Shown piece after piece: positions 2,237 to 57,773 of a stretch of DNA of 64,000 nt (position 1 is the first letter of the stretch; every line of letters starts with the position of its first letter). The position numbers were made by a program, and so were the translations under genes. The DNA comes from Macrostomum lignano (lineage: Eukaryota): positions 95,520 through 159,519 of the forward strand of contig NIVC01001674.1 in NCBI GenBank assembly GCA_002269645.1, read 5' to 3'. The notes below the pieces were generated by a model that had not been told where the DNA came from, searched no databases, and worked only from the letters and a program-made list of their open reading frames with translations.

Positions 2237-3771
2237 AACGCAAATAAAAATGGAATATGGAGGACTAAATAAGCAACATCGGTTCAATTTCGATTTCAAA
2301 AATAGCAGCAGACTAAGTTGCTGTGTGCCAACTTGGTAGACAAATGACAAAAAATTCATGTAATGGCGTGGGCTCACAGCTTCTTCATAAGTTATTAACA
2401 GCTTATTCCTTTAAATTTTCTTGGACACATTATAAACCAATCGTTTATCATGCATAGCCCACCTGGGTGGTTATAATATGTTTCAATACAGTTTTTATTG
2501 CAAACCCGAAGGACATTCTTTTTTATAATCATTGTTATTGAAAACTATAATTTGCGTCCAGGTGGGAAATTACGAGTAATCAGTTTTAACAAAAATAAAT
2601 ATATACTTTTCTCTGAACTAAACAGCAATTAAAATTTAAACAATCTGGTGTATTAAATACGCTGAATTTATAAAATTAAAAATATCAATGCGATCGAATT
2701 TCCGGCTCTGGCGCAAATTTAAATTAATTAAATATTGTTCTGATCGTTAATGAGTTCTACACGTTTAAACACAGCTAATGTACCGCCTGCAACCGCCAAA
2801 TTTATTTATTTTCGATCAGATTTGATGTCAGATCAAATTTGCATGACGTTAAAGCCAGTTTTTTACTGGTCGACCGAATACTTTGGTAAATTACGCATTC
2901 TCGTTCCTGTCTCAGAGAGCTATCGACATCGGCTGTGGCCTTTTCGCCTAGTTCTTGGATAAGCCGTGTAGGTCAGCTTTTTGGAACGTAGAGAGAGAAT
3001 TTGAATCTGCCATATCAGACCCACAAATATATCTATTTTATTACATTCCATAATCAAATCTAATAAACGACTGAGCACAAGGCATTTCAAAAAAACCCCA
3101 ACATATTTATTACATGTCGATCAAAAAGCGTATGAAGAGCATTCTCGACGTTTGTTTAAACGTTAAGAAATATACTGTCACTTTTGAAACAATTTAAACC
3201 AAAAAACTTGGAACATTTGTTAAATTTCTGAGTTTATCATTGCACTTCATCATATGCTCTTATTTTTTGGCACGTCTGACATTTTTAATCTCTGAAATTT
3301 TGACATGTCAGAACATTTTTGGCATGTTCGACATTTTGGCCACATGCAGAAAAGGCTCTGCTTTATCTGCAGTCTTCTCACTTCCTCGACAATTGCTCCT
3401 CTTCTACCTCAATCCTCAATAACATAAAACCCAATCAAACAGAATTTTATGTTGCAGTTGCTAATCCAGTGGCCGGGTTAGAATTGGTTTTCTTCCACTC
3501 ATCTTTTTTGCGTACAACAAAACGAACGATCGCATTGTGCGCATGTCCCACCCACTGCCAAGCCTCTCTGTGAGTTGCCGTTGCTTAGGAAACGGCAGAT
3601 CCAGTGAGTAGCGGACTGGAGCGGATCTCTGTATTGAAAAAACCACGGCAGTGCATTTGCTGAAATTCGGCAGTGCACTGTTACTGCGGCTGCTCACATG
3701 CGCTCGTGCAATGGCAGCTTTTTTTATTGCATTCGCCATCTGCACATGGGCCATCCAGCCTCCTGCCAGAA

Positions 3772-4017
<246 letters not shown>

Positions 4018-4339
4018 TGTACTCCTGCGTCTATATCGTACATGGAAGTGTTTCTGTGAATCAGTATGCCTTCTGCTGCCGTCCTGTCCTTGTCTATGTT
4101 GCCATTGTTTTGATAGTTCGAAGATCCTCTGATAATCTTCTTAATTGGCAGATTAAACTGCAGATTCAGCCCTTCCATGATTTGGTTGCATGATTGCTGC
4201 ACATTTTTGCAATGCTGTTGGCAATTCTTGGAAGGTGGATTCGTGGACCTTATTGAAGGCCTTTCGTACTCCTCATTCCAGCTAAATGAATTCTTTGAGC
4301 GTAAAGAGGTCTTAGCGTTGAGGTACATTCCGCGATCGA

Positions 4340-10680: not shown

Positions 10681-11808
10681 TCATTTGTTTTCAGACAACG
10701 ATTCTGACAGAGACTTATCGGCTCCGACGAATGGACACCGATTACCCTGTTCCCGGCGCCAATCAATCATTTTGATAGATTCATACTTCTTGCGAGCGCA
10801 GGCTTTGGGGTCGAAGAAGAGTGGTCCACGGTGTTGCCGCAAGCTTCTTTGACTGTCGCCAGTGTAATAAAGTTTCGCAGCTTGTCCCAAGAGTCGCTCA
10901 TTGGCACTGGTACCCACTGGCGGCAGCATCCAGCGTAGCTTCGTTCTTACCTCGAGCGTGTCATTGAGCTGACCGCCGATTTTTTGCTGCGAGCGCATTG
11001 TCACGTAGTAGGATTCGACAATCGCTTCTAAAAAAACGAAAGTTTCCATAATTACAAAGTATTAAAATTCTGCATACCTAAAACTTTTCAGACTAGCTCA
11101 TGCTCACCTGTGCCGCCGCGGTGAAGAGCAAAGTCGAGCAACAGACACGTGGCTTGACCAGCGCGGGAATAAACCCGAGGGTCCTTGTAAAAAGCCGCGT
11201 ATACTGCTGACTCGTTAAGCGTGGCGCAGACAGACTCGCCTGGCTCTGTAGTCAGTCGCAGTCGAAGCGCCAGATCGCCTGACTTGCGGGGTTCCGCAGA
11301 GACCTTAATAATGCGACCCTGTACAGCAGGTGTGAGCCAGTTATCTCGGCCGTCGCCTGAGATGAATGCCTCATGAATAGTCGTGATAAAAGCCTCCAAA
11401 TACTTCCGTGATAGGGACGACTTCACGTGCGGTGCGAGATGCTCGTGCTTTTCAGCAAGGCGGACGAGGTGCTTCATCTCAACGGCATGAGTTGCATTCT
11501 CGACTGCCTCTTCGATGTCCTCGGCAGTCAACAGGCTAACGGCAGATGCTGCATCCAGGACAATTGACGGATCCCTGACGCAGCATTTCTCCAATCGCGC
11601 AAGAAAGGAGCGGTGCAGGCTTGAAGCCAACTGGACTAGGTCCTGGAGAGAATTATAAATATATATAAGTGCGTTAATACACTAATCATGACATGACAGA
11701 AGTTTATACTTTTACACAGTAGCGGTGCTAAAACTCAGAGTTAAAAATTACCTGCTCCATATCCTGGGACTCTCGGAGTTGCCAGTCGACCCTGCTGCTT
11801 GGCCTACC
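10681..11808 (-). pseudogene. hAT transposase, 3' exons (11808-11752, 11642-11108, 11027-10681)
   Basis: Splicing yields HRGGT-EAIVESYYVTM...LNDTLEVR, matching the hAT C-terminal SSAxxERxFSxM dimerisation/catalytic-E region; introns of 109 and 80 nt. Confidence 0.82.
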
Positions 11809-11813
11809 GGTGC

Positions 11814-12685
11814 TATAGCGCTTCAAGTTTATGTCTCTTCTTCTTCACTTGTAGTTTTCCTATAGTTTGTCTAGCGGTTTATTGCAGTCTAAAAGTCTTG
11901 AAGGCTATAACTCCTAACGACTATCGAAGCTCAGTATTTTGGCTGGTCGTAGTGATCTCTCTAGATCGTTATCGCTGATCCTACTTGAGAAAGAACACAA
12001 ACACAATGATTTTCTAGTTTATCTAAACGGAACTCGAAGTGAGTCTATAATTAACCGGAGCGGTGAATCTTTTTCCGCGCTCCGCTCCGATATATATAGT
12101 GTTTTTAAAACCCCTCGATCCGAGGGGGAGATAATACCATAGCAACAGTACGCATGGGAATTTGGGGTGAGTGAGGTCGCAGCCTCGAGTCTAGTACAGT
12201 TATTGTCATTAAACTAGTTGGTTGGCAGGCACGCCAACCCCTTTCCTTTCATCGATCCCGCCTTCTTGTGCGGACTCGGCCTCCTCTCGATCTCGTTCCC
12301 GATCGGGTCCGGGCGGCTCCAGTTTCTGCTGGGTTGGGTCGATGCAGGCAGCTGCAGGTCGGGGTAGGCCGGGTTGATTCCGGGAGCTCCATGTCAGCAC
12401 AGCTGCGTTCCGGTCTCGGGCCATTCCACGTCAGCACAGCTGCGGATCCGGTCTCCAGCAGCTCCACGTCAGCGCCTCTGCGGATCCGGTCTCGGCCAGC
12501 TCCACGTTGGCACAGCTGCTGTCATGCCGAACCGGGCCTGCGCTGAAATGAATAGTTGATCTCTGGGGGCAGATTTTGTCTAATCATTCTCCTTTCGGTT
12601 GCTCGCACCTTCTGCTGTTGCTATTTTTAGTTTTAGTTACCAACTAATGCTCACTTAAATTCCATTCAGATTTCTAAGTCTTATA
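11814..12685 (-). repeat. 3' LTR (872 bp, termini TATA...TATA)
   Basis: 8 substitutions versus 23939-24810 by manual alignment. Confidence 0.96.
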
Positions 12686-12699
12686 TCATCCCCCTTTTG
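12686..12699 (-). promoter_or_regulatory. Polypurine tract
   Basis: AAAAGGGGGATGA immediately precedes the 3' LTR on the minus strand. Confidence 0.8.
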
Positions 12700-12869
12700 A
12701 AGAAATCCTTGACTGGTCAAGGGAGGTGTAGCCTATTGTCTTAATCGAGCTGCTAATCGGCTTACTACTAGTAGATCTGTGAACATATAAGACGTTTGAA
12801 ATCTGATACTTGATGAAAACGAAATCAATAAATGTGTTTGACCTGCACCGTAGATAAATATAGTTTTAC

Positions 12870-13211
12870 TTATAAATTATAGACGTGCGGGTGGTAACCA
12901 TCCAGTAGTGGCACCTGGTATTTGTCCCGGTAATGACGCCAGAAACAATCAATGGTGGGCCACTTCCTGGTGGCGGGCTCGGGCCGATACGTGGTCTCTG
13001 GTGGCCACGTGCCTTGTACTTGTCTTGTGGGGTAAAAATCCTCTAGGTAGCATTCTCGCAGGTCGGTTGTCGACGTGGCGACCGTCAGGCCGCCATCAAT
13101 CTCCTCCTCGGCCACCTGAGTGCTCGCGTCGGCCTTCAGGACCGGCCGCCCCCGGATGTCCACGTCAACAAACTTCTGGCCGGGGCGGCGGTCGTAGTCT
13201 CGGTTGGCCAT
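12870..13211 (-). CDS. Small accessory ORF of LTR element, ~113 aa
   Basis: ATG (MANRD) ORF in a GC-rich island just before the PPT. Confidence 0.45.
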   Translation of the reverse strand: MANRDYDRRPGQKFVDVDIRGRPVLKADASTQVAEEEIDGGLTVATSTTDLRECYLEDFYPTRQVQGTWPPETTYRPEPATRKWPTIDCFWRHYRDKYQVPLLDGYHPHVYNL

Positions 13212-13481
13212 CGCGCTGGAAAGGTTGTCCAATATAGGTGGCTTTCCTAGGCGTTTTTCTTTTATTCCTTAGGTTATTCTCCAGGTCTTCCTCGAATTGC
13301 TAAACTGTCTACTGTTAGTGAGTCTGTGAATATATAAAACGGTGAAATCTGAGATTGATCCCGTTATTTAATCCCTACTGGATATGATATATTAGTGTAA
13401 TTAATAAACATGGCCAGTTAGTTTTTTTTTCATTATTTAAGCGTCCTGTATGCTGCGCCAGGCTTCAACTTGATATTGGAG

Positions 13482-13742
13482 TCAGTTGCGCCACCAGGCC
13501 AGTCGCCCCGACGCCCAAGCCTTGGCTTGGCGAGCGGCGCTACGGATGACGCATTTCATCCAATAGCCCCGACGCCTTGTGGCCGATGGTGTGTCGTCGG
13601 GCCAACTTTCCTCCACGAACCTCTCCAGCTCCATTAATATTCCCACCAGCCGGACCCACCTGCGGTTGTTCATCTCCGTCTGGTGGATGACGGACTGTTG
13701 AGTTCGCATGGTCCCGATGAGTGGGATGTTGACTGTGTTCAT
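13482..13742 (-). CDS. Small accessory ORF of LTR element, 86 aa
   Basis: ATG ORF in a GC-rich island between AT-rich spacers; preceded by TTTCTAG. Confidence 0.4.
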   Translation of the reverse strand: MNTVNIPLIGTMRTQQSVIHQTEMNNRRWVRLVGILMELERFVEESWPDDTPSATRRRGYWMKCVIRSAARQAKAWASGRLAWWRN

Positions 13743-14432
13743 TGCTAGAAATTTGGATAATGTTTCGGATTCCAGTTTGAATGTTATATTTTTGTCTTTT
13801 AATCCTACGTTCTCTGTGGCATACTTGTTGCTACTACCTATCTATTGTGATTGATGTTTAAGTTCAATTGAAATGAAGTTAAACAGAGATAAGTTATGAG
13901 ATTTTCCAAAAAACCGAAACCAAAATACGATGTATTGATTGCGAATATACGTTCCTTGAGATCTCAAGTGAGTAATAACATTTCTGGGACTCTCAGGACA
14001 ATAACATGACTTAATTCATAGTGTTGTAATGGTTATAGCAGTGTGTCATGTGGTTGTGATTTGCTGGTGCTAGTACGTGTCGTAGTGAATAAACGTGTCG
14101 GAATGAATAATGAATTTGCATATAATAAATACGTGTGCCTCATCATGGAATTCGGTGAAGCCTTGTCTTTGCCTTTCTTCGCTATTCTAAGCTTGAGTTC
14201 ACATTGATTGATGGGCCTGGCTTTCCCTAGTTCACTGGTCCGATTGTTCGAGATGTGAATCACCTCCCAACTTTCTTTTAGTGAACTGGGTTCTGCTTTA
14301 AGGATTGCACATTGAGTGAGAGTGCCACAAGGATAGGACGTCCAATCGAATCGTCTTTTCTGTCCTATCGTTGCGTCAGTGTCTCAGCTCTCGTGTCTCC
14401 TTATGCCCCTAACACTTCCGGTCCCTAAGTTC

Positions 14433-15197
14433 CTACTGAGAAGCGGTGGCTTGCGAAGCTTCCAGTGCCATTTTTAGTTGTGGCCACTGGAGCAGCGCCG
14501 GTGAATAAGTGTGGATTACTCGCTTCTCTGCTTCCTGGTTGCTGATACGAATTCCATGATAATTCAACGCTTTACACAGATGCTTGGATAACGTGGTGCA
14601 TATCGCATTGGGTGGTGGGCCCCACGGATGGATCAGATTGACAGCTAGATTATGGCAGAGAACCTTGACTATGACACAGGTAAAAGCGTCTTGTTCCCCG
14701 TAGTGAAAGAAAATTGTTGTTCGGTTACGGAGGATGTTATAGTCCGAGAGGAGCCAGAGTGGGTTATTTTCGTCGGCCAGGATGCGCGCTGTTGTTAGGT
14801 GCGTCACTACATTGGCTGGGATTCGTGGCGCATCCAGCATGTCCAGGTGAATGTCAAATAGTTTCATCTCACCATGCCGATTAGGCTTGCTCTGGATGGA
14901 CTGTCTGTCCATAAGGTTGTGTAGCATCATGAAGGACAGATCTTTTTCTTCCCGTCTGTAGCTCTCTCTCATTACTGTTGGGCACAGCGATCGTCCGTGT
15001 CTAGATCTTCTGATCTCCCATTGGGTTTGGAGATGTCGCCGTTGCTGTTCGGTGGCGGCGCTGTTCCTAATGTTCATCTCCTTCCCGACTGCCGTGCTTG
15101 GTTCTGCCGACGCAAACAATGGCTTGACCAATGTGTAGGTCGTAAGCGGCTCATCGATGGCGCAATCATCCACTGTGTCTAGCTCCGTCGAATACAT
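14433..15197 (-). CDS. Accessory ORF of LTR element, 254 aa, unknown function
   Basis: Uninterrupted ATG ORF between pol and the 3' LTR, bounded by AT-rich spacers. Confidence 0.6.
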   Translation of the reverse strand: MYSTELDTVDDCAIDEPLTTYTLVKPLFASAEPSTAVGKEMNIRNSAATEQQRRHLQTQWEIRRSRHGRSLCPTVMRESYRREEKDLSFMMLHNLMDRQSIQSKPNRHGEMKLFDIHLDMLDAPRIPANVVTHLTTARILADENNPLWLLSDYNILRNRTTIFFHYGEQDAFTCVIVKVLCHNLAVNLIHPWGPPPNAICTTLSKHLCKALNYHGIRISNQEAEKRVIHTYSPALLQWPQLKMALEASQATASQ

Positions 15198-15366
15198 CTG
15201 ATTGTTCGAGGGTGGGTTGAATATTTGTGGGTGAATAAATGGTGACTAGTGATGCAGAGTAATATAAAATATATAATTCTAAATATCAGAGCGCACACCA
15301 ACAAGGAAATAAATAGTTAAAATGTAAGATTGTCCGTCTACTTCCTCCCTTCCTTGACCTCAGCTG

Positions 15367-18300
15367 TCAAGGAAGTTTCACTTTGTTCCTCAGATTGTAT
15401 TTCTTCCGAGCCGTGTCCGCCTGCGCGTCCAGCTCCTCTGCCTGCACGCTCACTTCCTTAGTGAATCGCTGCCTTGGCTGTCGCTGGTGGCGCTGTGGGT
15501 CGCTCGGTCTGAGGTCAGGAAGCATCACATGTGGTGTTGACGTGGCCATTGGTTTCAGCCTGTCGGTGTGCTGAAAGGACTCCTGATTTGGGTCGTCAAT
15601 TTTCCGGATTGTGACTGAAGTCTGGCTGCTCCTCTTCACAATCTCATAGGGTCCTGTAAATTTTGCCTGGTGCTTTCCCTGTCTCATGGGGATCTGTAGC
15701 ATAACTCTACTGCCTACTTCCAATGTAGTCAGCTTGCGATTAGCATTAGCTTTTCCGGTATTCTTCTCTTGAGCTATCTGCAGGTGATGTCTCGCTATTT
15801 CCCTGGCTAGTACGACGGCTTCTTTCATCCTGGCTGCGAATGATGGCTCGTCCATGTACTTTACCAAGTTCAACTGAGTCGTGAGTTGAGTGGGCATCAG
15901 AGGTCTCCGGGCAAAGACTAACTCGAATGGAGAGTAGGTCGACGATGCTTGCTTTGCTGTGTTGTAGGCGAACATCGTTGCCTGCAGGTACTTGTGCCAC
16001 TGGTCCGGATTCTCGGCTGTGTAGTGGCGTAACATGTTGTGGAGTGTAGAATGCAGTCGTTCCACATGATTCGCTCGAGGGTTATATGGGGATGTCAAGA
16101 TATGTTTGATCCCCAGGATTTCTAAGGCTTCGGCTAGTAGAGTTGCTGTGAAGTTCTTTCCATTGTCCGTGGACATCTCCATCGGGATCCCAAAAGTACA
16201 GAACACTGTGAATAGTGTCTCGGCCGTCGTTTCAGCTGTGAGATCTGGGATCGGAATAGCGAATGCAAATTTCGAAAAACAACAAAGGATTGTGAGAATG
16301 TGTGTTACTGTTTCATTTCTCACTTTAGTGGGCACCATTGGACCCACTATGTCAACCGACAATTTGTCCATTGGTCGCATTGGGACCTCTGAAAACTGGA
16401 TCAGTCCCTTATGGGTTTTTCCTGATTTATTCTTGGCGCACTCTATGCAGTTGTTACAGAATCCTCGGATGTCGGATACCATGGTGATCCAAAAGTAGTG
16501 TCTACGGATTCTCTCCAAGGTTTTCTCAAATCCTAGATGTGCCGCTAATGGCAATGCGTGTAGTGAGTGGCAAATGGTCTCACGATACTGAAACGGTAGG
16601 ATGATCTGCTGTGTTTGATCCGCTGTTCTGTGTAGAACGCCTCCAATCTCCGCGTAGTCCGCCAGGTGTCTATCGATGTGGCGTCTGTACTTCGGAGCCA
16701 GTGATTCTACTGCGGATTCTCCGTTCCACATTGCTCGGATTTGCTGGCAAAATGGGTCTTCCGCCTGGGCGTCCTTAAGTGCTTGCAGGTGTGGGATTGG
16801 ATGCGATATTGTAACATAATTGATTTGTTCCATTGGTTTCTCGTCGTATAATCTCGAGAGTGCGTCCGGTACTGCATGCGTGACTGATGCTCCAGGTACA
16901 TATTTGATCTGTATCTGAAATTGCTGTAAGTATAGTAACCAACGCAAAATTTGGTTGTTCTGCAGTATTCTGCCTGTGAGTAAGCCTCTGAGTGGGGCGT
17001 GATCTACTCTCAGTAGTGTAGGTATGGGAGCAGCGTATAAGAACTGTTCGAAGTTTCTGAATGCATGGTAGACTGCTAGAAGTTCGAGATGAGTGATTCC
17101 GTACCTCGTTTCTGCATCTCTGAGTTGTCTACTCGTGAATGCTATCGGTCTCTCCCGTCCCATCTCATCTTTCTGCGAAAGCATCGCTCCTATTCCTTTA
17201 GTTGAGGCGTCACTCGAGACTATGAACTGTTTGTTGAAATCCGGATGTGCTAGCCTGAGATCCTCGGCTATCCATTTCTTCATGGCCTCGAAAGTGTAGT
17301 CCGCTTCCTCGGTCCACTTTAGGTTGGTCTTCGTTGCTTGTCCTTTTGAGGTCGGTGCCCCTTTGAGCATATCCGTTAGCGGTTGTACTTTCTTAGCATA
17401 ATGTGGGACATGCTTCCTAAAGAAATTACACAGTCCGAGGAATGCTCTTAACTGAGTCACATTATCAGGTTTGGTTACCTTCTGTACCTTGTCCACTAGA
17501 GTGCGGTCTATCTGGATGCCGTTCTGGTCGATCTTGTGTCCCAGGAAGGTAATGCTGGGTTGCGCGAATCGACATTTCTGGAGTTTCAGCTTTAATCCGT
17601 GCTTTTTCAAGGCTTCCAAGGTACTTTTGAGTGTCTTGAGGTGGTGCTCGAACGTTTCCGTGAATACTAGCAAATCGTCCACGTATGTAGAGACTCTCTC
17701 GATACCTTTGAGGATGATGCTGGCAGCCCTAGACAAAGCGGCCGGGCTCGACTGTAATCCCATCGGCGCCCTTAAGAAGACTAGAGTTTCTCCGTCCGGT
17801 GTAGAAATTCCGCAGTACTTTCTACTGTCCTCGTGCAGGGCCACTTGAAAGAATGCCTGGGCCATGTCTAGAGTCGTGAAGTACTTTGATCCTTTGAGTT
17901 TGGCCAGCAGATCTGGAATTCTGGGCATACACTGTCTCTCGGGGACCAACAACCGGTTTAAGTCCCTGAAGTCCACGCACAGGCGATACACCGGTTTGGC
18001 GTCTGGCAACTCCGATTTTTTCTTAACGAGGAGAATTGGTGAAATGTACGGTGTCGGTGCTTTCATGAGAATCCCCTGCATCTCCATTCTGTCTATCACC
18101 TTCTTCAGTTCTCCTGTAAGCTGGTGTGGAATCGGATATCTCTTATTCAGCTTCACTTCCACATTCGGTTTTATGTGGAGTTCGTGTTTCGCTATTTCTG
18201 TAAAGCCTATCTCATCATCTGAGAGACAAAATGCTTCCTTGTTCTCCCAGAGGATCTCTCTTAGTCGTTCTTTCTGCTCTGCTGTTATCTCGGCTCCCTG

Positions 18301-19554
18301 CAGATTAATCGCTTCTCTAAATTCTGTCTCTTTCATTGCCGGTGCCTGTTCCTGATTCACCGCTATTTCATATGTCTCTATCTCTGTCTCATACGAACCT
18401 ATGGCTGTATCCGGGTACAGGGTGATAGGTCTGGCTGATTCGTTAGATATGAGAACGTGTATCTCTCCCTTCTCGTCCGGATGAACTATCTCCTGAGTCA
18501 GACCTATCGCCTTCTTCTCGACGATACTCCTGTCTGGCTCGAAAAGTACCGTGTCAGGCAATTCCTCCTTTGAGTCGGTTCTAGCTGTAATTTGAGCTGT
18601 TTCCCATGGATTCAGGTTTACCACGGAAACTAGTCTGATCTTATTTGTGGCTTCTTGGGCGGCGACGGTCATGATTTCATACGATCTGCCATTTAACTGC
18701 ATCTGTTGCTGTTGGTAATTGATAGACATTCCCTCCTGCAACTGACTTAGGTAATCAATTCCCAGGAGTGCATGGTATCTCCCAGAGCTCAAGTTAGGAA
18801 TGACATGAAACTTAACGTTGACGATTGCGTTTCCTGCTTCGACTGGTAACGTGATCATTCCGGATTGCGTGAGCTTTCCTCCGTGTACTCCTTGTAGCTC
18901 TGTCGTCGGCTTCTCGAAGCTGTCACTGTATCGGCGCGCCGTCGCTTCGTCTATCAGCGACCTCTCTGCTCCGCTGTCTATCAGCGCTCTACCGACTCGC
19001 GTGCCTATCTTCAGTCGCGTCACCGTGTACTTCTGGCCATTCGTAATTGCTGCCACTATCGGCGGTGGCCATGAGCTGATCGTCGGATAGATTGATGAAG
19101 CCAGTGGAGCAGACGGAATCATCGGTTGATGCTGTTCCGTATTTGTGGCTGGTGCCTCTGGTGCTGGGCGGCGTGGGCCCGTGTGTCTGTAGCTAGTGTC
19201 CGTGCTTGGCTGTACTAACAATTCGTGTTGTTCTCGCGTCGCCTTTATCCGTCTTTGAATGGCCCGAATTCCTGGTCGCTCGTACTTTTTCCGATAGAGC
19301 CTGTGACAAACTATTATGGTTTTGAGTATGATGTAGAAGTATACACAGAGAGCGGCAGCTCCAACGGCTATGTTGAAAATATTGAGTTTTATGCCTATCC
19401 ACGGCATCCAAGATGCGAAGTCATAAGTTTTGAGGGCTATGTTTGCTTCCAATGGTGGGAGGTCGAGCGTCTGTGAAGTCTTCTGCTTTGGTAGTTTAAA
19501 TACCGTTCTCAGAAATTCTCTCTGGTCCTTCATCTGCGTGTACAGATCGTGCAC
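15367..19554 (-). CDS. pol: Env TM/tail fused to Pol (protease, RT, RNase H, integrase with GPY/F)
   Basis: TM IFNIAVGAAALCVYFYIILKTIIVC followed by HRLYRKK; PR LIDSGA; RT TYVDD; RNase H SDAS/ELLAV/VDH; IN HHCC plus VDIVG/TDNG/VER; FTGPY. Confidence 0.95.
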   Translation of the reverse strand: MHDLYTQMKDQREFLRTVFKLPKQKTSQTLDLPPLEANIALKTYDFASWMPWIGIKLNIFNIAVGAAALCVYFYIILKTIIVCHRLYRKKYERPGIRAIQRRIKATREQHELLVQPSTDTSYRHTGPRRPAPEAPATNTEQHQPMIPSAPLASSIYPTISSWPPPIVAAITNGQKYTVTRLKIGTRVGRALIDSGAERSLIDEATARRYSDSFEKPTTELQGVHGGKLTQSGMITLPVEAGNAIVNVKFHVIPNLSSGRYHALLGIDYLSQLQEGMSINYQQQQMQLNGRSYEIMTVAAQEATNKIRLVSVVNLNPWETAQITARTDSKEELPDTVLFEPDRSIVEKKAIGLTQEIVHPDEKGEIHVLISNESARPITLYPDTAIGSYETEIETYEIAVNQEQAPAMKETEFREAINLQGAEITAEQKERLREILWENKEAFCLSDDEIGFTEIAKHELHIKPNVEVKLNKRYPIPHQLTGELKKVIDRMEMQGILMKAPTPYISPILLVKKKSELPDAKPVYRLCVDFRDLNRLLVPERQCMPRIPDLLAKLKGSKYFTTLDMAQAFFQVALHEDSRKYCGISTPDGETLVFLRAPMGLQSSPAALSRAASIILKGIERVSTYVDDLLVFTETFEHHLKTLKSTLEALKKHGLKLKLQKCRFAQPSITFLGHKIDQNGIQIDRTLVDKVQKVTKPDNVTQLRAFLGLCNFFRKHVPHYAKKVQPLTDMLKGAPTSKGQATKTNLKWTEEADYTFEAMKKWIAEDLRLAHPDFNKQFIVSSDASTKGIGAMLSQKDEMGRERPIAFTSRQLRDAETRYGITHLELLAVYHAFRNFEQFLYAAPIPTLLRVDHAPLRGLLTGRILQNNQILRWLLYLQQFQIQIKYVPGASVTHAVPDALSRLYDEKPMEQINYVTISHPIPHLQALKDAQAEDPFCQQIRAMWNGESAVESLAPKYRRHIDRHLADYAEIGGVLHRTADQTQQIILPFQYRETICHSLHALPLAAHLGFEKTLERIRRHYFWITMVSDIRGFCNNCIECAKNKSGKTHKGLIQFSEVPMRPMDKLSVDIVGPMVPTKVRNETVTHILTILCCFSKFAFAIPIPDLTAETTAETLFTVFCTFGIPMEMSTDNGKNFTATLLAEALEILGIKHILTSPYNPRANHVERLHSTLHNMLRHYTAENPDQWHKYLQATMFAYNTAKQASSTYSPFELVFARRPLMPTQLTTQLNLVKYMDEPSFAARMKEAVVLAREIARHHLQIAQEKNTGKANANRKLTTLEVGSRVMLQIPMRQGKHQAKFTGPYEIVKRSSQTSVTIRKIDDPNQESFQHTDRLKPMATSTPHVMLPDLRPSDPQRHQRQPRQRFTKEVSVQAEELDAQADTARKKYNLRNKVKLP

Positions 19555-19566
19555 TGTAATTGGCCT

Positions 19567-21102
19567 TCAGATTTCTTCTATTTTAATATCAGTTTCTGGT
19601 GTAAAGATAATCCGTTTGATATTAGGTAATTTCATAGCCTCTATTCCCCAATCTTCGTTCTTCAATTTCTTTACCTGTATAAGTTCGAAGCTGGTGAAAT
19701 TTGAGTCGACCTTGTACACTTTGTCCTCTTTGGGTAACAGGTATCCAGTTCGATTCGAGCAGTCCTGAAAGGTGGGGTGCTCGGTCTCAATTTCCATAGT
19801 TCTTACGTCCAAAAATCCTGTACGGTTGGTTTCCGCTACTTTGTACTTCAACGGAGGTTTGGAGAAACATCGGCTTTGATTCCAGTGTGGTTGATGGAAT
19901 TCGAAGTCGGTCACTGGGATGCATTTGAAGATTACGACATGCTGAGCTATCGTTCTGGCCTTGAGGTTCTTGTCTTTGAACAGTGTCCTCACCGCTAGTG
20001 TTGGTTGCATCCTTATGAAGTCTTTAATGTATCTAAAAATGGTCTGTTGGAGTCGGCATTGTTGAAGGATTACATGACGAGTCAGATCACCAATTCTGTT
20101 TTCCATTGTAAGTTCAACACTCTGTAATTTCGCTGCTAGAGTTTCCTGTGATACCAAGTCTCTCTTTGTCCTCTTTGCTGTGCTAGAGTTATTAAAATTA
20201 CCTTGTACTATCGATAAGAATTCTGCTTCGGATCCTTCTAGTTTAACCAACTTTCCTTGTTCTGACCTGAATAGTTTAGTTGTCGTTCCTCCGCATTTCA
20301 GCTCCATTGAGTGTGGTGGGTGTTTAAAAGTCAAAGCGTAGGTAGCGTCCTTGGACATGAACCATCCTGTGTGTATGGTTCCTTCAATTCGCCTGTCTTC
20401 CTGGTACGGGCAGTCAATTGCAGCGCTGGGTGTCCAGGCATATCTGTACTGGCGTTCTCCAGCGACCTTGAATGTTGTGTCGTAGTATCTCAGAGCTTCC
20501 CATAATTTATTGGGTACTTGTCTCTCCAACGGCGCATCCTTCTCGGCCTGTAGAGTGGACTCGTGAAGACATTTTCCTATGGTGTAATTGCAATGTCCTA
20601 GTGGGATATATAGTGATGACATTTTCTTATTCTCCACGAAGAACGGAATTTTCGTTATCAGCGTGGACGCTGATTTCGTATATCTAGTTTGGGTACTAGC
20701 CGTTGGGTCGAATTCCTCTGTTGTCCAGATGTGAGTAGTAAAGCGTTCAGCTTTGTTCGGGGCTTTCCCATCTTCTTCGAGGATGCCATCTGGTGTTCGG
20801 TAACCTTCCTCCCAGGACTCACAATCTTCCTCTGAAACTAGATGTTTCTGTACCGTAACAGTCATTTCTGGTCTTACCACTTTGGCAGCAATCGTTTTCA
20901 GTGCTACGCTGGTGAAGACATACGTTTCTCGGTAACAGATCTTGAGTGTTGATCGGTGAGTGACCTGGTTTGGTCTAAAGATTGTCAGGTTGATCGGCTG
21001 TCGGTGCTGCTGTATACTGCTAGGCATCTTGCACTCGATGTCCGGTGGCAGCTTGAAGATCTGTGGCCTGGAGGGCTCCGGGCAGTACATCGGTGTGTCC
21101 AC
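19567..21102 (-). CDS. env: Env ectodomain segment, class III (herpes gB / chuvirus G-like) fusogen
   Basis: Cys-rich with multiple N-x-S/T sequons and furin site RTKR (20172-20161). QPTLAVRTLFKDKNLKARTIAQHVVIFKCIPV and CFSKP...GFL...MEI...QDC parallel HSV-1 gB [31 protein letters not shown] and CYSRP...GQL...NEL...EPC (recalled). Confidence 0.8.
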   Translation of the reverse strand: MDTPMYCPEPSRPQIFKLPPDIECKMPSSIQQHRQPINLTIFRPNQVTHRSTLKICYRETYVFTSVALKTIAAKVVRPEMTVTVQKHLVSEEDCESWEEGYRTPDGILEEDGKAPNKAERFTTHIWTTEEFDPTASTQTRYTKSASTLITKIPFFVENKKMSSLYIPLGHCNYTIGKCLHESTLQAEKDAPLERQVPNKLWEALRYYDTTFKVAGERQYRYAWTPSAAIDCPYQEDRRIEGTIHTGWFMSKDATYALTFKHPPHSMELKCGGTTTKLFRSEQGKLVKLEGSEAEFLSIVQGNFNNSSTAKRTKRDLVSQETLAAKLQSVELTMENRIGDLTRHVILQQCRLQQTIFRYIKDFIRMQPTLAVRTLFKDKNLKARTIAQHVVIFKCIPVTDFEFHQPHWNQSRCFSKPPLKYKVAETNRTGFLDVRTMEIETEHPTFQDCSNRTGYLLPKEDKVYKVDSNFTSFELIQVKKLKNEDWGIEAMKLPNIKRIIFTPETDIKIEEI

Positions 21103-22725
21103 TCAGTTCTGGTGTCTTGGGTTTATCGTCTCCGCCGTGGTACAGAGCAATGCGAAGAGTAGTATTTTCAGCAGGAGTGCGCATGTCGGTCCGGCTGGGG
21201 CCTTCCAGCCTTCGCTAGCCTGTTTAGCCCTCTGCTCTCGCTTTCGTCCTTCGAGCTGTTGAGCGGTCTGAACTAGGGCGATTGTCGCCGTCTTGTTCTT
21301 CCTGTTCTGTCGTCTTGCCTGTATGACGTCGCTCCTCGCCCGTGTCGGCGTTGTCGCTTCCATCGTGCTAATTGCCATGATGTGCGCTGACTGGCTGGGC
21401 TCAATCGCCAATTGAGCTGGCTGCGGACTGGGGTCCTGGGCCGTGACTTCGGCGATCCGCTTTGGCTGCTGCCATTGCTGCGGATACCGTCCTTGATCAC
21501 CCTGGCGTGGTCGGCCGCATTCCGATGTCCAATGGTTCTGCATGTTACAGTTCTTGCAATATCGCTGGCCTCTGCACTCCTTTGCAATGTGGCCTCTCTT
21601 TCCGCATTTGTTGCACTTAACGTTACCTCGATCTTGTCTGCCCTGTGACTGCACTTGGCCCCCGGTACTCTTACCGATGTTCCGGTTACCGATGTTCCGG
21701 TTCCTTTGGTAGCACCTGTTGGCTGTGTGGCCTATCTTGTCACAGAGTTGGCATGTCGGCCTTGGGTTGCCGTCTGGGTACTTGGTTGCGGCTTCCTTCT
21801 GTGGCTGTTGAGCTCGATCTTGGGTGCGCCGGTCCGCTTGCCTGATTGTCGTCTCCATCTGTGCTACCATGGCTGTCAGCTTGCGTACGTCGTTGGAGTC
21901 GTGTTCCAGCTCTCGCAGTGCTTGCCATTGAAGTGCTTCACGCACCATCTCCGGGACCGTCTGGTAACGTCCTCTGGCTAGATATAGTCGCAATGCCGGT
22001 GTGGCATTCTGTTGCGCGTGCAGCATGATGTGGTCTTGGACTATGCGTTTGTTGCGGTTGATTCTTGCGCCTCTGTCGTTCTCATTCTCACCCTCCGGTG
22101 CTGGTTCTTGGAACACTGAGTTCTCGACTAGTTGTGTGATGTCGGCAATGAACTTGTTAACATCCTCTCCTGGATGCATCCTCCTCATGGAGAGTTGGAG
22201 TACTGCCGTGGGTCGATCCATCGCTCTGGTGTCATACAGCTCTCGGAGTTGTGTTCTCACCTGTCCGTAGTCTTCTCGGACAGCTTGTGGGAGTCCCGCG
22301 TATTGATTACGGGCGTTAGGACGCAGCATGAGTGGTAGTAGTCGGCACTTCTCTTCGTCCGTTAGGCCATATGTCGCTGTCTGTAGTTCAAACTCCGTCA
22401 GCCATTTGACAAATGGCTGTCCCATTTCGTAGTCTCCTGCCGACAGTTTTAGAGCCTGGACAATGGCTGGTAGGTCCCTGCCGTGTGCCATGGCGAGACG
22501 CTGCTGTAGTTCTCGGACTTGGTTCTGGAGATCATCCATTGCGTTGTCCTCGTTTTCCGAGTCTGATGAGTGCTCGTTGTTGTCTTCCCACTCGTCGTTG
22601 TGGTCTAGCTGGTCTTCTCGCTGATCTAACTGATCTTGTGGCTGTTGTTGTTGATCAACGTCTCCGGGTTCTGGAGTTCTGTCAGTACCTGTTTGAATGT
22701 CTTGGTTTAGAGCTTCGTTATTCAT
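21103..22725 (-). CDS. gag: Gag segment with three CCHC knuckles, ending in a signal-peptide-like stretch
   Basis: CQLCDKIGHTANRC, CNKCGKRGHIAKEC and CKNCNMQNHWTSEC knuckles; capsid-like KWLTEFELQTATYGL; first ATG at 22725; C-terminal CALLLKILLFALLCTTAET. Confidence 0.92.
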   Translation of the reverse strand: MNNEALNQDIQTGTDRTPEPGDVDQQQQPQDQLDQREDQLDHNDEWEDNNEHSSDSENEDNAMDDLQNQVRELQQRLAMAHGRDLPAIVQALKLSAGDYEMGQPFVKWLTEFELQTATYGLTDEEKCRLLPLMLRPNARNQYAGLPQAVREDYGQVRTQLRELYDTRAMDRPTAVLQLSMRRMHPGEDVNKFIADITQLVENSVFQEPAPEGENENDRGARINRNKRIVQDHIMLHAQQNATPALRLYLARGRYQTVPEMVREALQWQALRELEHDSNDVRKLTAMVAQMETTIRQADRRTQDRAQQPQKEAATKYPDGNPRPTCQLCDKIGHTANRCYQRNRNIGNRNIGKSTGGQVQSQGRQDRGNVKCNKCGKRGHIAKECRGQRYCKNCNMQNHWTSECGRPRQGDQGRYPQQWQQPKRIAEVTAQDPSPQPAQLAIEPSQSAHIMAISTMEATTPTRARSDVIQARRQNRKNKTATIALVQTAQQLEGRKREQRAKQASEGWKAPAGPTCALLLKILLFALLCTTAETINPRHQN

Positions 22726-23923
22726 ATACTGATATTCCGGTCTATTGGTTCTTTGCGGAGTTGGCCGCAAATGATATGAATGTAAGTGATGCGTATTTAA
22801 TCAGCTTGACTTCAACAAAATGTCTTGTCAGTGTGCACTCTGATCTATCTTAAGATCTCACAAAAGTTTAAGTGAAATTCAAATATGAGAAAAGGGGCAG
22901 AGGTATCGGATACGTTTCCGGCCAGGTGGTGCTGTCAATATGTAAATTATCTTGCATTTTGTAAATAAATGAGTGCATTTTTTGTCTCGCTTGTCGTAGA
23001 TATGCGCGAGGCTAAATAATATGGTTGCAGCATTTTATACACATGCACTTTTAGCGACTAAGCATTTTGCTTTCCCTCTTTCTGCCTCATTGGCTAGTTG
23101 GGCTACGCATTTCAATTTTCATTCCGAAATGCCTCGAGGTTGTCTCATGGACTGGCTACCTAGGTTGGGGGCACAAATACTTACCCTAACACGCCTTGTA
23201 GTAGATCAACAGCGCTATGGGCGGGCTGTCGCGTTTGCTGGAGAGCGGAGTCAGATAGACACAGTGTACAGAGCCTAAGTGAGTTCTTCCCCCCTCTGTG
23301 TCCGCGCAGTCCTTAGTGCCAAGAGTATGAACTCCCCTCAGAAGGTCTACTATCCTACTGAGCCTATTGAAGCGCGCTATAATAATGAAAAGCCCTATAC
23401 GGTGTACTTTTTAATGCTGCTATTCGCCTGACAGGTCCTTTACCTGTGATGAGTCGGCCGGCTCCTGCAAACTCCTTTATAGTCTAAAGTTTAATCTGTG
23501 GTAATGTTGGCCAGCGCTGCCTTAATTCTGTTAATGAGTACACCTTTTGTAATAATTCGACTATAGTCCTATTTAAACAACTTCCTGGTAGCCCCTCGCT
23601 ATTGATGTGCGGCCTTGGTGATTTGCTTCACCAGCCGCTAAATATTTCTCTACTAAGGAAAATCATACCGTAACTTTGTACATAACTATTCTACTTTTTT
23701 TTCTTGTTTTTAGAATTCAATCGCATTTTTTTGAGCTTTTTCAATGAGAAACGCACATGTCCTCTTACGACACGATGTATAGTATACTTAGTAAAGAAAC
23801 AATTGTATGACAGCACTCATCCTGGCCTTCCGCGTTCCTTCCTCCACCGTCAGAAATTACTCAGCCATTACTGGTCGATGTCGTCAGGTTGAAAAGTGTA
23901 GACTGCTTAATAGATGACTCGTA

Positions 23924-23936
23924 GGTCTGGGAACCA
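23924..23936 (-). promoter_or_regulatory. Primer-binding site, probably tRNA-Glu
   Basis: TGGTTCCCAGACC lies 2 nt after the 5' LTR; it matches 12/13 the complement of the vertebrate tRNA-Glu 3' end (...GGUCAGGGAACCA, recalled). Confidence 0.7.
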
Positions 23937-23938
23937 CG

Positions 23939-24810
23939 TATAGCGCTTCAAGTTTATGTCTCTTCTTCTTCACTTGTAGTTTTCCTATAGTTTGTCTAGC
24001 GGTTTATTGCAGTCTAAAAGTCTTGAAGGCTATAACTCCTAACGACTATCGAAGCTCAGTATTTCGGCTGGTCGTAGTGATCTCTCTAGATCGTTATCGC
24101 TGATCCTACTTGAGAAAGAACACAAACACAATGATTTTCTAGTTTATCTAAACGGAACTCGAAGTGAGTTTATAACTAACCGGAGCGGTGAATCTTTTTC
24201 CGCGCTCCGCTCCGATATATATAGTGTTTTTAAAACCCCTCGATCCGAGGGGGAGATAATACCATAGCAACAGTACGCATGGGAATTTGGGGTGAGTGAG
24301 GTCGCAGCCTCGAGTCTAGTACAGTTATTGTCATTAAACTAGTTGGTTGGCAGGCACGCCAACCCCTTTCCTTTCATCGATCCCGCCTTCTTGTGCGGAC
24401 TCGGCCTCCTCTCGATCTCGTTCCCGATCGGGTCCGGGCGGCTCCAGTTTCTGCTGGGTTGGGTCGATGCAGGCAGCTGCAGGTCGGGGTAGGCCGGGTT
24501 GATTCCGGGAGCTCCACGTCAGCACAGCTGCGTTCCGGTCTCGGGCCATTCCACGTCAGCACAGCTGCGGATCCGGTCTCCGGCAGCTCCACGTCAGCGC
24601 CTCTGCGGATCCGGTCTCGGCCAGCTCCACGTCGGCACAGCTGCTGTCATGCCGAACCGGGCCTGCGCTGAAATGAATAGTTGATCTCTGGGGGCGGATT
24701 TTGTCTAATCATTCTCCTTTCGGTTGCTCGCACCTTCTGCTGTTGCTATTTTTAGTTTTAGTTACCAACTAACGCTCACTTAAATTCCATTCAGATTTCT
24801 AAGTCTTATA
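23939..24810 (-). repeat. 5' LTR (872 bp)
   Basis: Direct repeat of 11814-12685, followed on the minus strand by the PBS. Confidence 0.96.
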
Positions 24811-27534
24811 GGTGCGTTGGTTGCCTCGAGCGGTCACCGTGGGCTTGTCCGGCAGTACAAGCCATCCGCCCATCAATTCGACCGATTTGAATGAGCCTCC
24901 CGGTTTGATGGACTCATAGAAGGGCTGTAAAAATTGAAGTGAAGTAGGAAAGAAATGAATGCGCAAATTTAAGCCCTTTAAATATAATTTAAGCCCTTAC
25001 ATATAGGCCCAAATCATTTACCTGCAGTCGTGGGTAATCCTCAACTCGGAAAACCTCTGAGCGATCAGCAAAATGCTTCGCTACCCGATCGGCCAGCACG
25101 GAAACCTTCCAGTGAGGCAACTGGAGGTTCTGAGCCACTTCCATCAGGGAGACTAGTGGACCAAAAAGGTCCTGCAGGCACAGCAAGTCAAAAACGAAGT
25201 CGCTTCCGAACATTGCATATTGCGACTCTTCGTCATCAGAGCAGCACGGATTTTCTGCTCGAAATGCGGTGTGCAGAGCGGCGTAACTTGCCTCAATGGC
25301 GGACCACTGTCTAAAAAAAGAAGCGTAGTGGGAGGACATTAAATAAATTTTTATTTACCCTTTTCATCACCATTTTTATTAGACTATTTATTGATAATAG
25401 CTGGTACTTACTTGATTGCAGAGCTCGTGAAACGCTGGGCTGCGAAATGCGACATCGCTCGAGCTGAACCGTCTGACGCCTCTTTCAGTGCTGCCTCACC
25501 ACGACCATGGCTGAAATAGGTAGCAAAAAAATTCGCTCGCTTTATAAACCGGCGCAATGACTCCCCATCAGGTCCATCGCGAACATCAGTGACGGCCAGA
25601 TTCAAGTAGTGTGCCGCATCCCACATCACAGGAATCTTTTCGACGTCATCGACAGGGGCCCCGAGCTCGGTCCGAATAGCGCGGCAGAATGTGCCAGCTT
25701 GGTACTGGCCATCAGCGACGATACCCATGATGCTTGCAGTGGGCGTCTTCAACACCTGATAGATTCAAAATGATGAAATTAAGCACTCGTCTAATTTAAA
25801 GTTTAAAACTGTTAGAATCCCTTCAATCGTCCAAAAAATAATACGTTAGTGACGGTTACCTTAAGTGTCTGCATTAGTCTTTTGGCCAGGGCTTCCCCAT
25901 CTGCTTGCATTGCAGAGTCGTACACAGCAGGTGCACCCGCAGGAATCGCTACGGCTTCGCCATTTTCGCAGCGAGCTAGAAGGAGTGCCGCCTGATTCGT
26001 TGTGCGGCCTGGGGTGCTTTTGTCGCAGGTGATGGTCAGCAGAGGCGGCTGTCCAGTCGAAGGCAGAGGACACCGCAGAAACTCTGCACTTTCGTCGTTT
26101 ACGCAGGCGTCTAATAACTTCCAAAGTTCTTTGCAGAATGCACTGTGTAAGGAGGGAGGGTAGGTGAAATGACAAAGTTATTATTTATTAAGTATATCTG
26201 ATTGCATTTAAATAAAATTATTTATAGTGTATAGATATGTTTGCAGGTAAACTTACAAGCCATGGCCAATCTGACCAACTTCACAATCAGACGCATCGAG
26301 CAGACTCATTAGAGTCTCGTAATGCGAACCCGCAGCAGCCATTTCAATTGTCGCAATAGCACAGCGGAGAAGGGTGCGCACAACCTTGCCTTGTGCCGTC
26401 TGTTGTACGACTTCGGTTCGGTAGTCCTTCACAGCCGAATAGTGGGTCTTGCTTGTCAAACAGTGGTTTACGAGTTCATTGCGAAATTTGGAGAACTCGT
26501 CCACACCACTTAGCAAACCTGCGACTCGTTCGGCTGAAAGTCGTAGCCCTCTGCTGAAGGACTTATTCTTTTCAGTGGTGGTGGGGTTCCTGGAAAAGTG
26601 AAAAGCTCGGTACATTAACACCTTAAGTACTTCTTTAAGACTATCCCGTCTAAACGGACTCTACATACAGTACATATAAAAAACATTCGACTTACAGAAT
26701 GCTGTAGATTTGCTCGGCTGTACAGTTGGTAGGCATCAGTTTCGACTTGCAGAGGAACGTGACACAGGGAACGCAGTTAAAAATCGAGTCACCATTCTCG
26801 CACGACTTGAGCGAACAAAACTCAAACTGCAGTAACTCAGCGAAACTATTTGTGGCCGCCACATCATCGTTGCCGAGGTCGATTTTGGACTTATTTTCTT
26901 GATTGCTGCCCTTACTACATTTAGATGTAGCAACAGCATTGACGGATATATTTTCAAGCAGTTTTTTCATCTGCACAATCTCCTGCGTCTGTGACTCGAA
27001 CGCCTTTTGCAGAGCAGTGATCTTCTTAGCCATGTTTTCTGGAGCTGGTGCTGAATCAACAGCTTCGAGTCGCAACTGTAGACGACACTGCAGGTCTGTC
27101 TGCTGCTGCTGACCGGATGACTGCTGCTGACCGGATGACTGCTGCTGACCGGATGACTGCTGCTGATCGGATGACTGCTGCTGATCGGATGACTGCTGCT
27201 GATCGGATGACTGCTGCTGATCGGATGACTGCTGCTGATCGGATGACTGCTGCTGATCGGATGACTGCTGCTGCTGCTGTTCAGACTGATCAACCTCAGC
27301 ACTCAAGTCGTCCTCTTCGTCTTCCACAGTAGCTACATTTTGCAGGGCACGCTCATTCAACAGCCTTCGAACCTCCTGGTTATCTCTTCGAGCGAAATCA
27401 GGAGGTGCATGTCCAACACCTTTGCGCCCCTGGTGTTGACTCTTACAGTGCCGATTAAGATCATGTGGAAGACCACGGACTGTTCGGCAGTTTCGCAAAT
27501 TTCGACCAGCCCTTTAGCAGGACAAACAGTAGTG
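24811..27534 (-). pseudogene. hAT transposase, 5' exons (~27534-26696, ~26650-26257, 26142-25860, 25755-25412, 25310-25022, 24924-24811)
   Basis: Spliced frame gives LTITCDKST (first D), IVADGQ (second D) and WDAAHYLNLAV (CxxH-equivalent). GT-AG introns are phase-consistent except the first junction, which is uncertain. An N-terminal CLSC...H...H finger carries a premature TAA. Confidence 0.82.
27103..27270 (-). repeat. 18-bp coding tandem repeat x9 (QQQSSD/G) in hAT transposase
   Basis: Direct reading. Confidence 0.95.
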
Positions 27535-36440: not shown

Positions 36441-37136
36441 AAGAAATAACGAGATGAGTCTTAGCCAAATTTAATTTGTTCCACTAAGAGCTTCTCGCAA
36501 ACAGCAAGAACTGTTAAGAGCAAAATTCCAAATAAGAAAAGGTTATTTTATTTTAGAGTTAACCCGGATCCCTTTTATACTAAATTTTTGGGGAAGAAGG
36601 AATACATTAAAACAAAATTAGTGAGTTAAAACAAATTTAGGAAAAATTAAAACAAAAAAGGGATAGCATTTAAACAACTAAATAAATTTTTTGATTGGTT
36701 CAGAAATTGGTTGGCGCTTAATTACTGTTAGTAGTGATTATAGGTTAATTAAATCCTGCCTCAACTGGCTTCCCTTAGTTAAATTTTTGAATAAGATTGA
36801 GTGAAAAAATTTAACATAGTACTGTAAGTAGGATTAAAGGGTAGGTATAAGCATGAGCAGATAATTATGAGCAAAACATATATACATCGAGCATGCGCCT
36901 ATAAGAGTCCCGCCTGGACTTTGGTCCGGTTCTTTCGTCCGCTCACTTATCCGATAGTTCGTCCGGTTGATAATGTATTTTTTCCATAAGGGAAAATCGG
37001 ACAAAGCGGACGAAAAGTTACGAAAGCGGACGAAAACTTCACCTCACGTGACGTTCGTCCGCTCGTTAGTCCGGTGTTTGATCCGTTTATCTGCCGATGC
37101 TTCGTCCGTTTCACTTTAGCACTGACTAAACAAATC

Positions 37137-37420
37137 GGACGAGCAGGCGGATGAAAAGCGGGTGAAATGCGGACGAAATCGCTTCAATTGGCGATTCGGA
37201 CGAGCAGGCGGATTAAAAGCGGGTGAAATGCGGACGAAATCGCTTCATTTGGCGATTCGGACGAGCAGGCGGATTAAAAGCGGGTGAAATGCGGACGAAA
37301 TCGCTTCATTTGGCGATTCGGACGAGCAGGCGGATTAAAAGCGGGTGAAATGCGGACGAAATCGCTTCATTTGGCGATTCGGACGAGCAGGCGGATTAAA
37401 AGCGGGTGAAATGCGGACAG
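37137..37420. repeat. 60-bp subterminal tandem repeat (~4.7 copies) of the EnSpm element
   Basis: Direct reading. Confidence 0.93.
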
Positions 37421-57040: not shown

Positions 57041-57773
57041 CAGTCTGGGTCACATCACCAGTCAACGTGGTCACATCACCAGTCAGTCTAGGTCACATCA
57101 CCAGTCAGTCTGGGTCACATCACTAGTCAACTGGGTCACATCACCAGTCAGTCTGGGTCACATCACCAGTCAACTGGGTCACATCACCAGTCGGTCTGGG
57201 TCACATCACCAGTCAGTCGGGTCACATCACAAGTCAACGTGGTCACATCACCAGTCAGTCGGGTCACATCACCAGTCAACTGGGTCACATCACCAGTCAG
57301 TCGGGTCACATCACCATTCAACTGGGTCACATCACCAGTCAACGTGGTCACATCACTAGTTAGTCGGGTCACATCACCAGTCAATCGGGTCACATCACAA
57401 GTCAACGAGGTCACATCACCAGTCAGTCGGTCACATCACCAGTCAACTGGGTCACATCACCAGTCAGTCGGGTCACATCACAAGTCAACGTGGTCACATC
57501 ACCAGTCAGTCGGGTCACATCACCAGTCAACTGGGTCACATCACCAGTCAGTCGGGTCACATCACCAGTCAACATGGTCACATCACCAGTCAACGTGGTC
57601 ACATCACCAGTCAGTCTAGGTCACATCACCAGTCAGTCTGGGTCACATCACTAGTCAACTGGGTCACATCATCAGTCACCAAGGTCACATCACCAGTCCC
57701 TAAGGTCAAAACACCAGTAGAGGTCATGACACCAGTAGAGGTCACATCACCAGTCACTAAGGTGATGTGACCA
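57041..57773. repeat. ~21-22-bp minisatellite (GGTCACATCACCAGTCA...), more than 30 copies
   Basis: Direct reading. Confidence 0.96.

Follow-up and report, generated by a model that had tools for sequence, protein, structure and literature searches.

As judged from its sequence, the element described here is a Ty3/gypsy LTR retrotransposon of the flatworm Macrostomum lignano; a single reading frame covers its Gag, its gB/nyamivirus-like Env and its Pol. The tail predicted behind the Env membrane anchor carries two putative late-domain motifs, PSAP and IYPTI. In the explanation that we favour, and hold with modest confidence, the Env tail rather than Gag would bring the ESCRT signal and Pol would be left on Env. 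The feature is real, in a damaged copy of an element whose kind is already known: the gene order Gag-Env-Pol has been published, so the layout brings nothing new. What appears to be unreported is the presence of late-type motifs in the Env tail, together with the consequences of the predicted topology for Pol.

The element and its genomic setting

The window, by which we mean the whole 64,000-nucleotide stretch of DNA that was analysed, contains the element on its minus strand at 11814-24810 (about 13 kb). It is bounded by a 5′ LTR (23939..24810, minus strand) and its 3′ partner (11814..12685, minus strand), which are 99.1% identical with 8 mismatches across 872 nt. The LTR ends (11814-11817 and 24807-24810) read TATA...TATA instead of TG...CA, and each LTR has a 38-nt tandem unit (12409-12519, 24534-24644). 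A 5-bp target-site duplication was read at the element ends (11809..11813 and 24811-24815, unstranded), and the empty-site joint 11808>24811, with 5 shared letters, is present in three of four sequencing runs. Two nucleotides inside the 5′ LTR lies a putative primer-binding-site-like stretch that starts with TGG (23921..23936, minus strand), and a polypurine tract (12686..12698, minus strand) adjoins the 3′ LTR.

The LTR pair, target-site duplication, primer-binding-site-like stretch and polypurine tract are structural features of Ty3/gypsy elements, and the Pfam domain order, PR-RT-RH-IN, is that of the Metaviridae. Named Pol matches are gypsy-type and the integrase has a GPY module. The closest named proteins come from M. 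lignano itself. The flanks (11088-11681 and 24989-27513, minus strand) hold a run of minus-strand ORF fragments that is split by the element and may itself be a repeat. Tandem arrays elsewhere in the window lie at 3707-4070 (unit 8 nt), 27070-27303 (18 nt), 37135-37439 (61 nt), 40143-40583 (21 nt), 45582-46148 (27 nt) and 57048-57738 (21 nt).

Coding parts of the chain

All coding parts lie on the minus strand. Gag (21200..22725) has its first Met at 22725 and three CCHC knuckles at 21753, 21615 and 21558; a scan of the window copy's Gag for PS/TAP, PPxY and hydrophobic-YPx[LIV] returned none. Between Gag and Env, hydropathy indicates an internal signal-peptide-like segment, TM1 (21121..21199). 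Its pattern of basic residues, hydrophobic core and small residues at the end recurs in 9/9 loci examined; the cleavage site was assessed by eye.

The Env ectodomain (19420..21120) is predicted to be a class III fusogen of the gB/nyamivirus kind, from Pfam (PF24664, E 4.6e-10) and from fold matches, and includes a furin-type RTKR at 20172 and eight N-glycosylation sequons. A model of the Env-to-protease region, built for a copy that is 97% identical, was of low confidence (pLDDT 58, pTM 0.31). Foldseek searches with this low-confidence model gave a Nyavirus glycoprotein as top viral match (E 1.7e-28) and herpesvirus gB (E 7e-19), at TM-scores of only about 0.2.

The ectodomain is followed by a Trp-containing membrane-proximal stretch, FASWMPWIG (19393..19419), recognised from sequence and related loci, and by the Env membrane anchor TM2 (19306..19380). 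TM2 is assigned by hydropathy (best 19-residue Kyte-Doolittle mean 2.25) and is a helix in the low-confidence model. Net charge is +1 before TM2 and +7 in the 20 residues after it, where the basic stop-transfer HRLYRKKYER (19305-19276) opens the predicted cytosolic tail (19050..19305). The rest of the tail is Pro-rich and without predicted structure. It includes PSAP (19105..19116), a putative TSG101-type late motif, and IYPTI (19078..19092), a putative ALIX-type YPxL-like motif with Ile in place of the textbook Leu, which a YxxPhi sorting signal also fits. A Trp-Pro pair (19066..19071), about 30 residues ahead of the catalytic Asp, is invariant in 9/9 rows and occurs in 18/53 database tails against 6.6 in shuffled tails; it may mark the boundary between tail and protease.

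The frame continues into an aspartic protease (18733..19023; DSG at 18978; PF00077), a reverse transcriptase (17530..18024; YVDD at 17685; PF00078), an RNase H (16918..17241; PF17917) and an integrase with HHCC, core and GPY module up to the final stop (15367..16593; PF17921, PF00665). A preliminary description of this DNA had reported the juxtamembrane stretch, TM, basic stop-transfer, PSAP and protease DSG in one frame, each where we find it on the minus strand; the Pfam matches put the pol enzymes downstream in the same ORF. It had overlooked IYPTI at 19092.

Downstream of pol, an accessory ORF of about 250 aa (14433..15245) is kept in 6 related loci and is 40% identical in a neighbouring family. 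It has no Pfam match and its structure model (pLDDT 39) was too poor for a fold search; weak atlas leads point to Ulp1/C48 peptidase-like clusters, with a score of 0.88 that is under the reliable range. More short minus-strand ORFs without a Pfam match (13482-13841, 12870-13268) lie in the roughly 2.7 kb that separate pol from the 3′ LTR (12686-15366). In other Gag-Env-Pol families of the host genome, RING-finger ORFs follow pol (L053:8740-9489, Pfam E 4.8e-7; L054:8756-9553, E 2.3e-6; L061:1110-1898, E 0.009), and it is possible that these encode ubiquitin ligases of the elements' own. Loci L058 and L059 have internal deletions that fuse the N-terminal half of Env to the C-terminal part of the integrase; possibly they are non-autonomous elements.

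A predicted single Gag-Env-Pol polyprotein

The frame of the window copy is interrupted by two in-frame TGA codons, at 21103..21105 and 19567..19569 (minus strand). Both sites are open in 7/7 nearest copies, two of which are 97% identical in DNA and five about 62% identical in protein. The preliminary description had let Pol begin with the Env anchor, at 19566. That ORF start merely follows the second stop, and the chain starts in Gag; because the stop at 19569 cuts the frame, a Pol that begins with a TM is an artefact. The sequences of the relatives indicate that the native product is almost certainly one Gag-signal-Env-TM-tail-PR-RT-RH-IN polyprotein and that the stops are private to this copy. 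Its two private stops mean that the window copy lacks uninterrupted ORFs, whereas the family layout is intact in relatives: in the host genome, open frames of 2,370-2,866 aa hold 17 of the 84 scored Env matches (84 of 233 candidates were scored).

The same arrangement was found outside the host genome. A profile search was run against a protein database of 1.84 billion representatives and its best 150 matches were scored. Env, TM and protease stood in one chain in 57, the TM was weak in 10, a downstream protease was absent from 71, and 12 were unscorable. A Gag knuckle was also present in 26 of the 57 one-chain matches and 9 ran on to RT; named nematode proteins (Globodera, Caenorhabditis) are among them. 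The profile search was needed, a word-index search with the Env-PR query having given 1 match among 4,372 candidates. The proposal that Pol lies in frame behind the Env tail is thus borne out in related elements.

We also looked for a separate pol start or splice acceptor below the TM. None of the in-frame ATGs at 19533, 19407 and 19122 is common to the families, no Met position is common to all seven families of the host genome, and no pyrimidine-tract splice acceptor was found in 18978-19570 of the window copy. A -1 frameshift was rejected as well: the sole slippery-like heptamer (19500) is in the wrong phase and precedes TM2. Contigs of four sequencing runs, three of them guessed to be RNA, had no joint inside gag-env-pol, a result given no weight, as contigs cannot show absence.

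The two stops themselves might be sites of programmed read-through by which the Gag:Env:Pol ratio is adjusted; both are TGA and in frame, and the LTRs on either side of them are nearly identical. We rejected this reading, which we consider extremely improbable, since the stops are absent from all seven nearest copies. The first, moreover, falls directly after the signal peptide and the second within the Env stalk, and neutral decay alone, scaled to the LTR divergence, predicts 1.6 stops.

Late-domain-type motifs in the Env tail

The 2,477-codon frame of the window copy has no P[ST]AP other than PSAP, and IYPTI, 8 residues behind it, is the only hydrophobic-YPx[LIV]; PPxY was sought across the same frame and is absent. 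Among 40 loci fetched from the host genome, 27 were scorable, that is with TM, tail and protease in one frame, and a motif was found in every one of these (PS/TAP in 21, hydrophobic-YPx[LIV] in 22, PPxY in 11). With one row per family, a motif is present in 7/7 families, against 0.62 in shuffles that keep composition; PS/TAP is present in 6/7 (0.21 shuffled) and YPx in 5/7. The preliminary description had asked for conservation across copies, and it holds in part: the TM and some late-type motif are kept, and PSAP itself is not invariant, one of the seven families having PPAP, yet keeping LYPKI. Family pairs are mostly about 30% identical and motif order varies between families. Such changing order fits short binding motifs better than passive inheritance, at least at the level of sequence. 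The seven families form one clade and hence do not amount to seven independent gains.

The hydrophobic-YPx[LIV] pattern was widened after the host-genome tails had been inspected, and the fresh test is the database set only. This set holds 53 tails from the best 150 matches, after removal of 10 whose TM was weak, 2 of more than 260 aa and 2 that resembled the host-genome families. A motif occurs in 15 of the 53 against 2.2 in shuffled tails, with 0/2000 shuffles as high. By class, PS/TAP is found in 4 (0.49 shuffled), PPxY in 8 and YPx in 6. Matches picked on the Env ectodomain alone gave a motif in 14/45 against 1.7 shuffled, and 14 decoy patterns each matched 0-3 of the 53 tails. In the 130 residues after the last knuckle, used as a control, a motif was found in 0/23. 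Four full-length proteins contain 8 motifs in 462 tail residues as against 4 in 9,842 other residues. The remaining 38 of the 53 database tails are without any motif, so either the polyprotein layout can do without such motifs or it relies on different ones.

A quick tree of 46 rows, midpoint-rooted and built with the tail excluded, placed a motif in 3/23 rows of the clade that contains five named nematode rows, in 10/16 other database rows and in 7/7 rows of the host-genome clade. Tail dN/dS is 0.13 in two pairs, one of them near saturation, and lies above the 0.05 of Env; the value of 0.64 between the window copy and its nearest copy comes from very few changes and is uninformative. The tail shows two traits of a late domain, a PS/TAP, YPXnL or PPxY motif within a predicted cytosolic, unstructured segment and a motif that is kept or re-made above chance among relatives, weakly so in the nematode-containing clade.

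Of 24 database records that stop in the tail and show no protease motif, 8 carry late-type motifs against 1.0 shuffled (P0005, P0026, P0034, P0040, P0065, P0115, P0119 and P0127). These eight may be Gag-Env proteins from which a frameshift leads to Pol, or gene calls that were cut short. Env-less Gag-Pol relatives had a motif before the protease in 0/10 scorable cases out of 116 Pol matches, a difference that is not significant (Fisher p 0.10) in a control that is small, with 106 of the 116 unscorable and 9 taken by stricter scoring, and made of distant relatives (25-35% identity). A search for a close env-less sister found none, the env-less host-genome loci L069-L070 being just 29-30% identical.

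A possible route of assembly and release

The domain order, the single frame in relatives, the two hydrophobic segments that flank a glycosylated fusogen and the tail motifs support a route of the following kind. TM1 would bring the growing chain to the ER, where signal peptidase would cut behind it, as the topology and general knowledge of ER insertion suggest. Gag would thereby be parted from Pol during synthesis, so that no covalent Gag-Pol could exist. TM2 would stop transfer, so that the tail and Pol stay on the cytosolic side, attached to an Env anchored in the membrane. That Gag is cut off and Env-tail-Pol becomes a membrane protein is, to judge from the predicted segments, very probable.

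Where Env clusters, PS/TAP and YPxL/I, and in some families PPxY, would recruit TSG101, ALIX or NEDD4-type ligases. The host encodes both a UEV domain and an ALIX V domain, the targets of such motifs, and binding of the tail motifs to ESCRT partners seems likely. Because Gag is motif-less and the host has both target domains, the Env tail is the simplest reading of where the ESCRT signal comes from. The scission signal would then be supplied by the glycoprotein rather than by Gag, and we think it fairly probable that the tail motifs serve particle release. Clustering of Env could also drive dimerisation of the protease and so free the enzymes. Whether Pol would enter the particle still tied to Env is close to an even question, on which we lean slightly to the negative; alternatively it could be released beforehand and picked up by RNA, as happens in foamy viruses. 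A 1:1:1 supply of Gag, Env and Pol would be ill suited to building a capsid, which speaks against the scheme, and no mechanism that would correct these amounts was found.

The main rival keeps the polyprotein and regards the motifs as real ESCRT or adaptor motifs, and has Env-Pol sorted to endosomes or lysosomes, for turnover of surplus or for routing to an assembly site. One-to-one synthesis would indeed give surplus Pol, and YPx[IL] also matches the YxxPhi endocytosis signal, which is common in the tails of viral glycoproteins. PPxY and YPxL likewise double as degradation signals on host membrane proteins. We nevertheless judge sorting unlikely to be the role of the tail. Enrichment is clearer with Pro at Y+1 (YPxPhi, 9 in the tails against 3.1 shuffled, 2 of 1000) than for other YxxPhi (42 against 33, 52 of 1000), and the Gag of the window copy is itself free of late motifs. 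The mixture of PS/TAP, YPxL and PPxY is, moreover, the viral late-domain set as given in the available text of PMC12789967.

In a different history, the tail would once have been the p6-like end of Gag, displaced when env entered between the nucleocapsid and that segment; the motifs would then act on a spliced Gag-tail-Pol, or on a peptide that the protease releases, rather than on Env. The place just ahead of the protease parallels that of HIV p6 at the end of Gag, and the eight motif-bearing records that end in the tail look as if some relatives stop there and reach Pol otherwise. The missing acceptor and common Met, and the motif-free env-less Gag-Pol relatives, distant though these are, weigh against it, and we rate this account as distinctly improbable; its origin half can be combined with the explanation that we favour. 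That PSAP is a chance match within a Pro-rich flexible linker is very improbable. The linker is variable as well as Pro-rich, and the majority of database relatives lack a motif, but composition-keeping shuffles give PS/TAP far less often than the 6/7 families and 4/53 database tails that carry it, and decoy patterns are rarer.

More tentatively, and with less than even confidence, this lineage may have transferred the tasks of budding and of packaging the enzymes from Gag to the fusogen, with Env organising release and timing protease activation. Under this topology Pol would have to go with Env instead of Gag, and the motifs in the tail point to specific host partners; with partners named, how Gag-Env-Pol elements assemble and leave the cell becomes a testable question. 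If the scheme is true, late domains can shift from Gag to the tail of a fusogen, and there is a third way to package Pol, beside Gag-Pol fusion and foamy-type RNA capture. Such an assembly route for a reverse-transcribing virus was not described in the literature searched, nor were late domains in retrotransposon Env tails or a gag-env single polyprotein; most subscription papers lay outside that search.

Comparison with known systems

The NERV group (nematode endogenous retroviruses), the subject of Sacco et al. 2022, reportedly has one continuous gag-env-pro-pol ORF, a nyamivirus-like Env and a small extra ORF. The element's relatives share the continuous ORF, and the likeness extends to the position of Env before pol, the fold match to the Nyavirus glycoprotein and the one-chain layout of the named nematode proteins. 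The host-genome families nevertheless stand on a branch of their own outside the nematode-containing clade and differ from it in tail motifs (7/7 against 3/23 in the quick tree). Membership of the NERV clade was rejected, given that the closest named proteins are from the flatworm and that the rows fall outside the nematode-containing clade of that midpoint-rooted quick tree.

GAG-ENV-POL elements have been surveyed as HSV/gB-type 'errantiviruses' of Nematoda, Bryozoa and Platyhelminthes (Chary and Hayashi, eLife 2026, PMC13524379). As far as the available text of that survey describes them, they share with our element the Ty3/gypsy order of Pol domains, a gB-type Env, env between gag and pol, and LTRs. 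Our element has env in that position and a gB-like ectodomain (PF24664) between a signal/TM segment and a TM. The supplement of the survey includes one M. lignano element, which may or may not be of the window's family, and the available text credits nematode elements with env before pol to Sacco et al. 2022. The mechanism of transmission is said there to be unknown for most elements in the survey, and in its main text the terms PSAP, PTAP, ESCRT, budding, cytoplasmic tail, polyprotein and late domain do not occur in the part available (PMC13524379).

In retroviral Gag, PS/TAP recruits TSG101 and YPXnL recruits ALIX, according to the available text of PMC12789967. The p6 region of HIV-1, with PTAP and YPXnL (PMC12789967, same text), has the same motif classes as the element's tail, paired in a short unstructured segment directly before the protease. 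In HIV-1 this segment belongs to Gag and Pol is carried on Gag-Pol, whereas here the Env ectodomain and two membrane segments intervene. Late motifs on a viral membrane protein are known from NS3 of bluetongue virus, in which PSAP and PPRY recruit TSG101 and NEDD4 for release (available text of PMC7409164); unlike the element's Env, NS3 is no fusogen and carries no enzymes. Foamy viruses do not make Pol as Gag-Pol and package it through genome RNA, as the available text of PMC7828637 has it. The element would likewise keep Pol off Gag. A difference is that foamy viruses translate Pol from a spliced mRNA of its own, with no fusion to Env.

The polyproteins of flaviviruses and alphaviruses have the order capsid, signal, glycoprotein and TM, and signal peptidase takes part in their processing. 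Flavivirus enzymes come after the glycoproteins in that one chain. Neither group packages its enzymes, and neither uses reverse transcription. The element shares the capsid-signal-glycoprotein-TM order with both groups and differs from them by reverse transcription.
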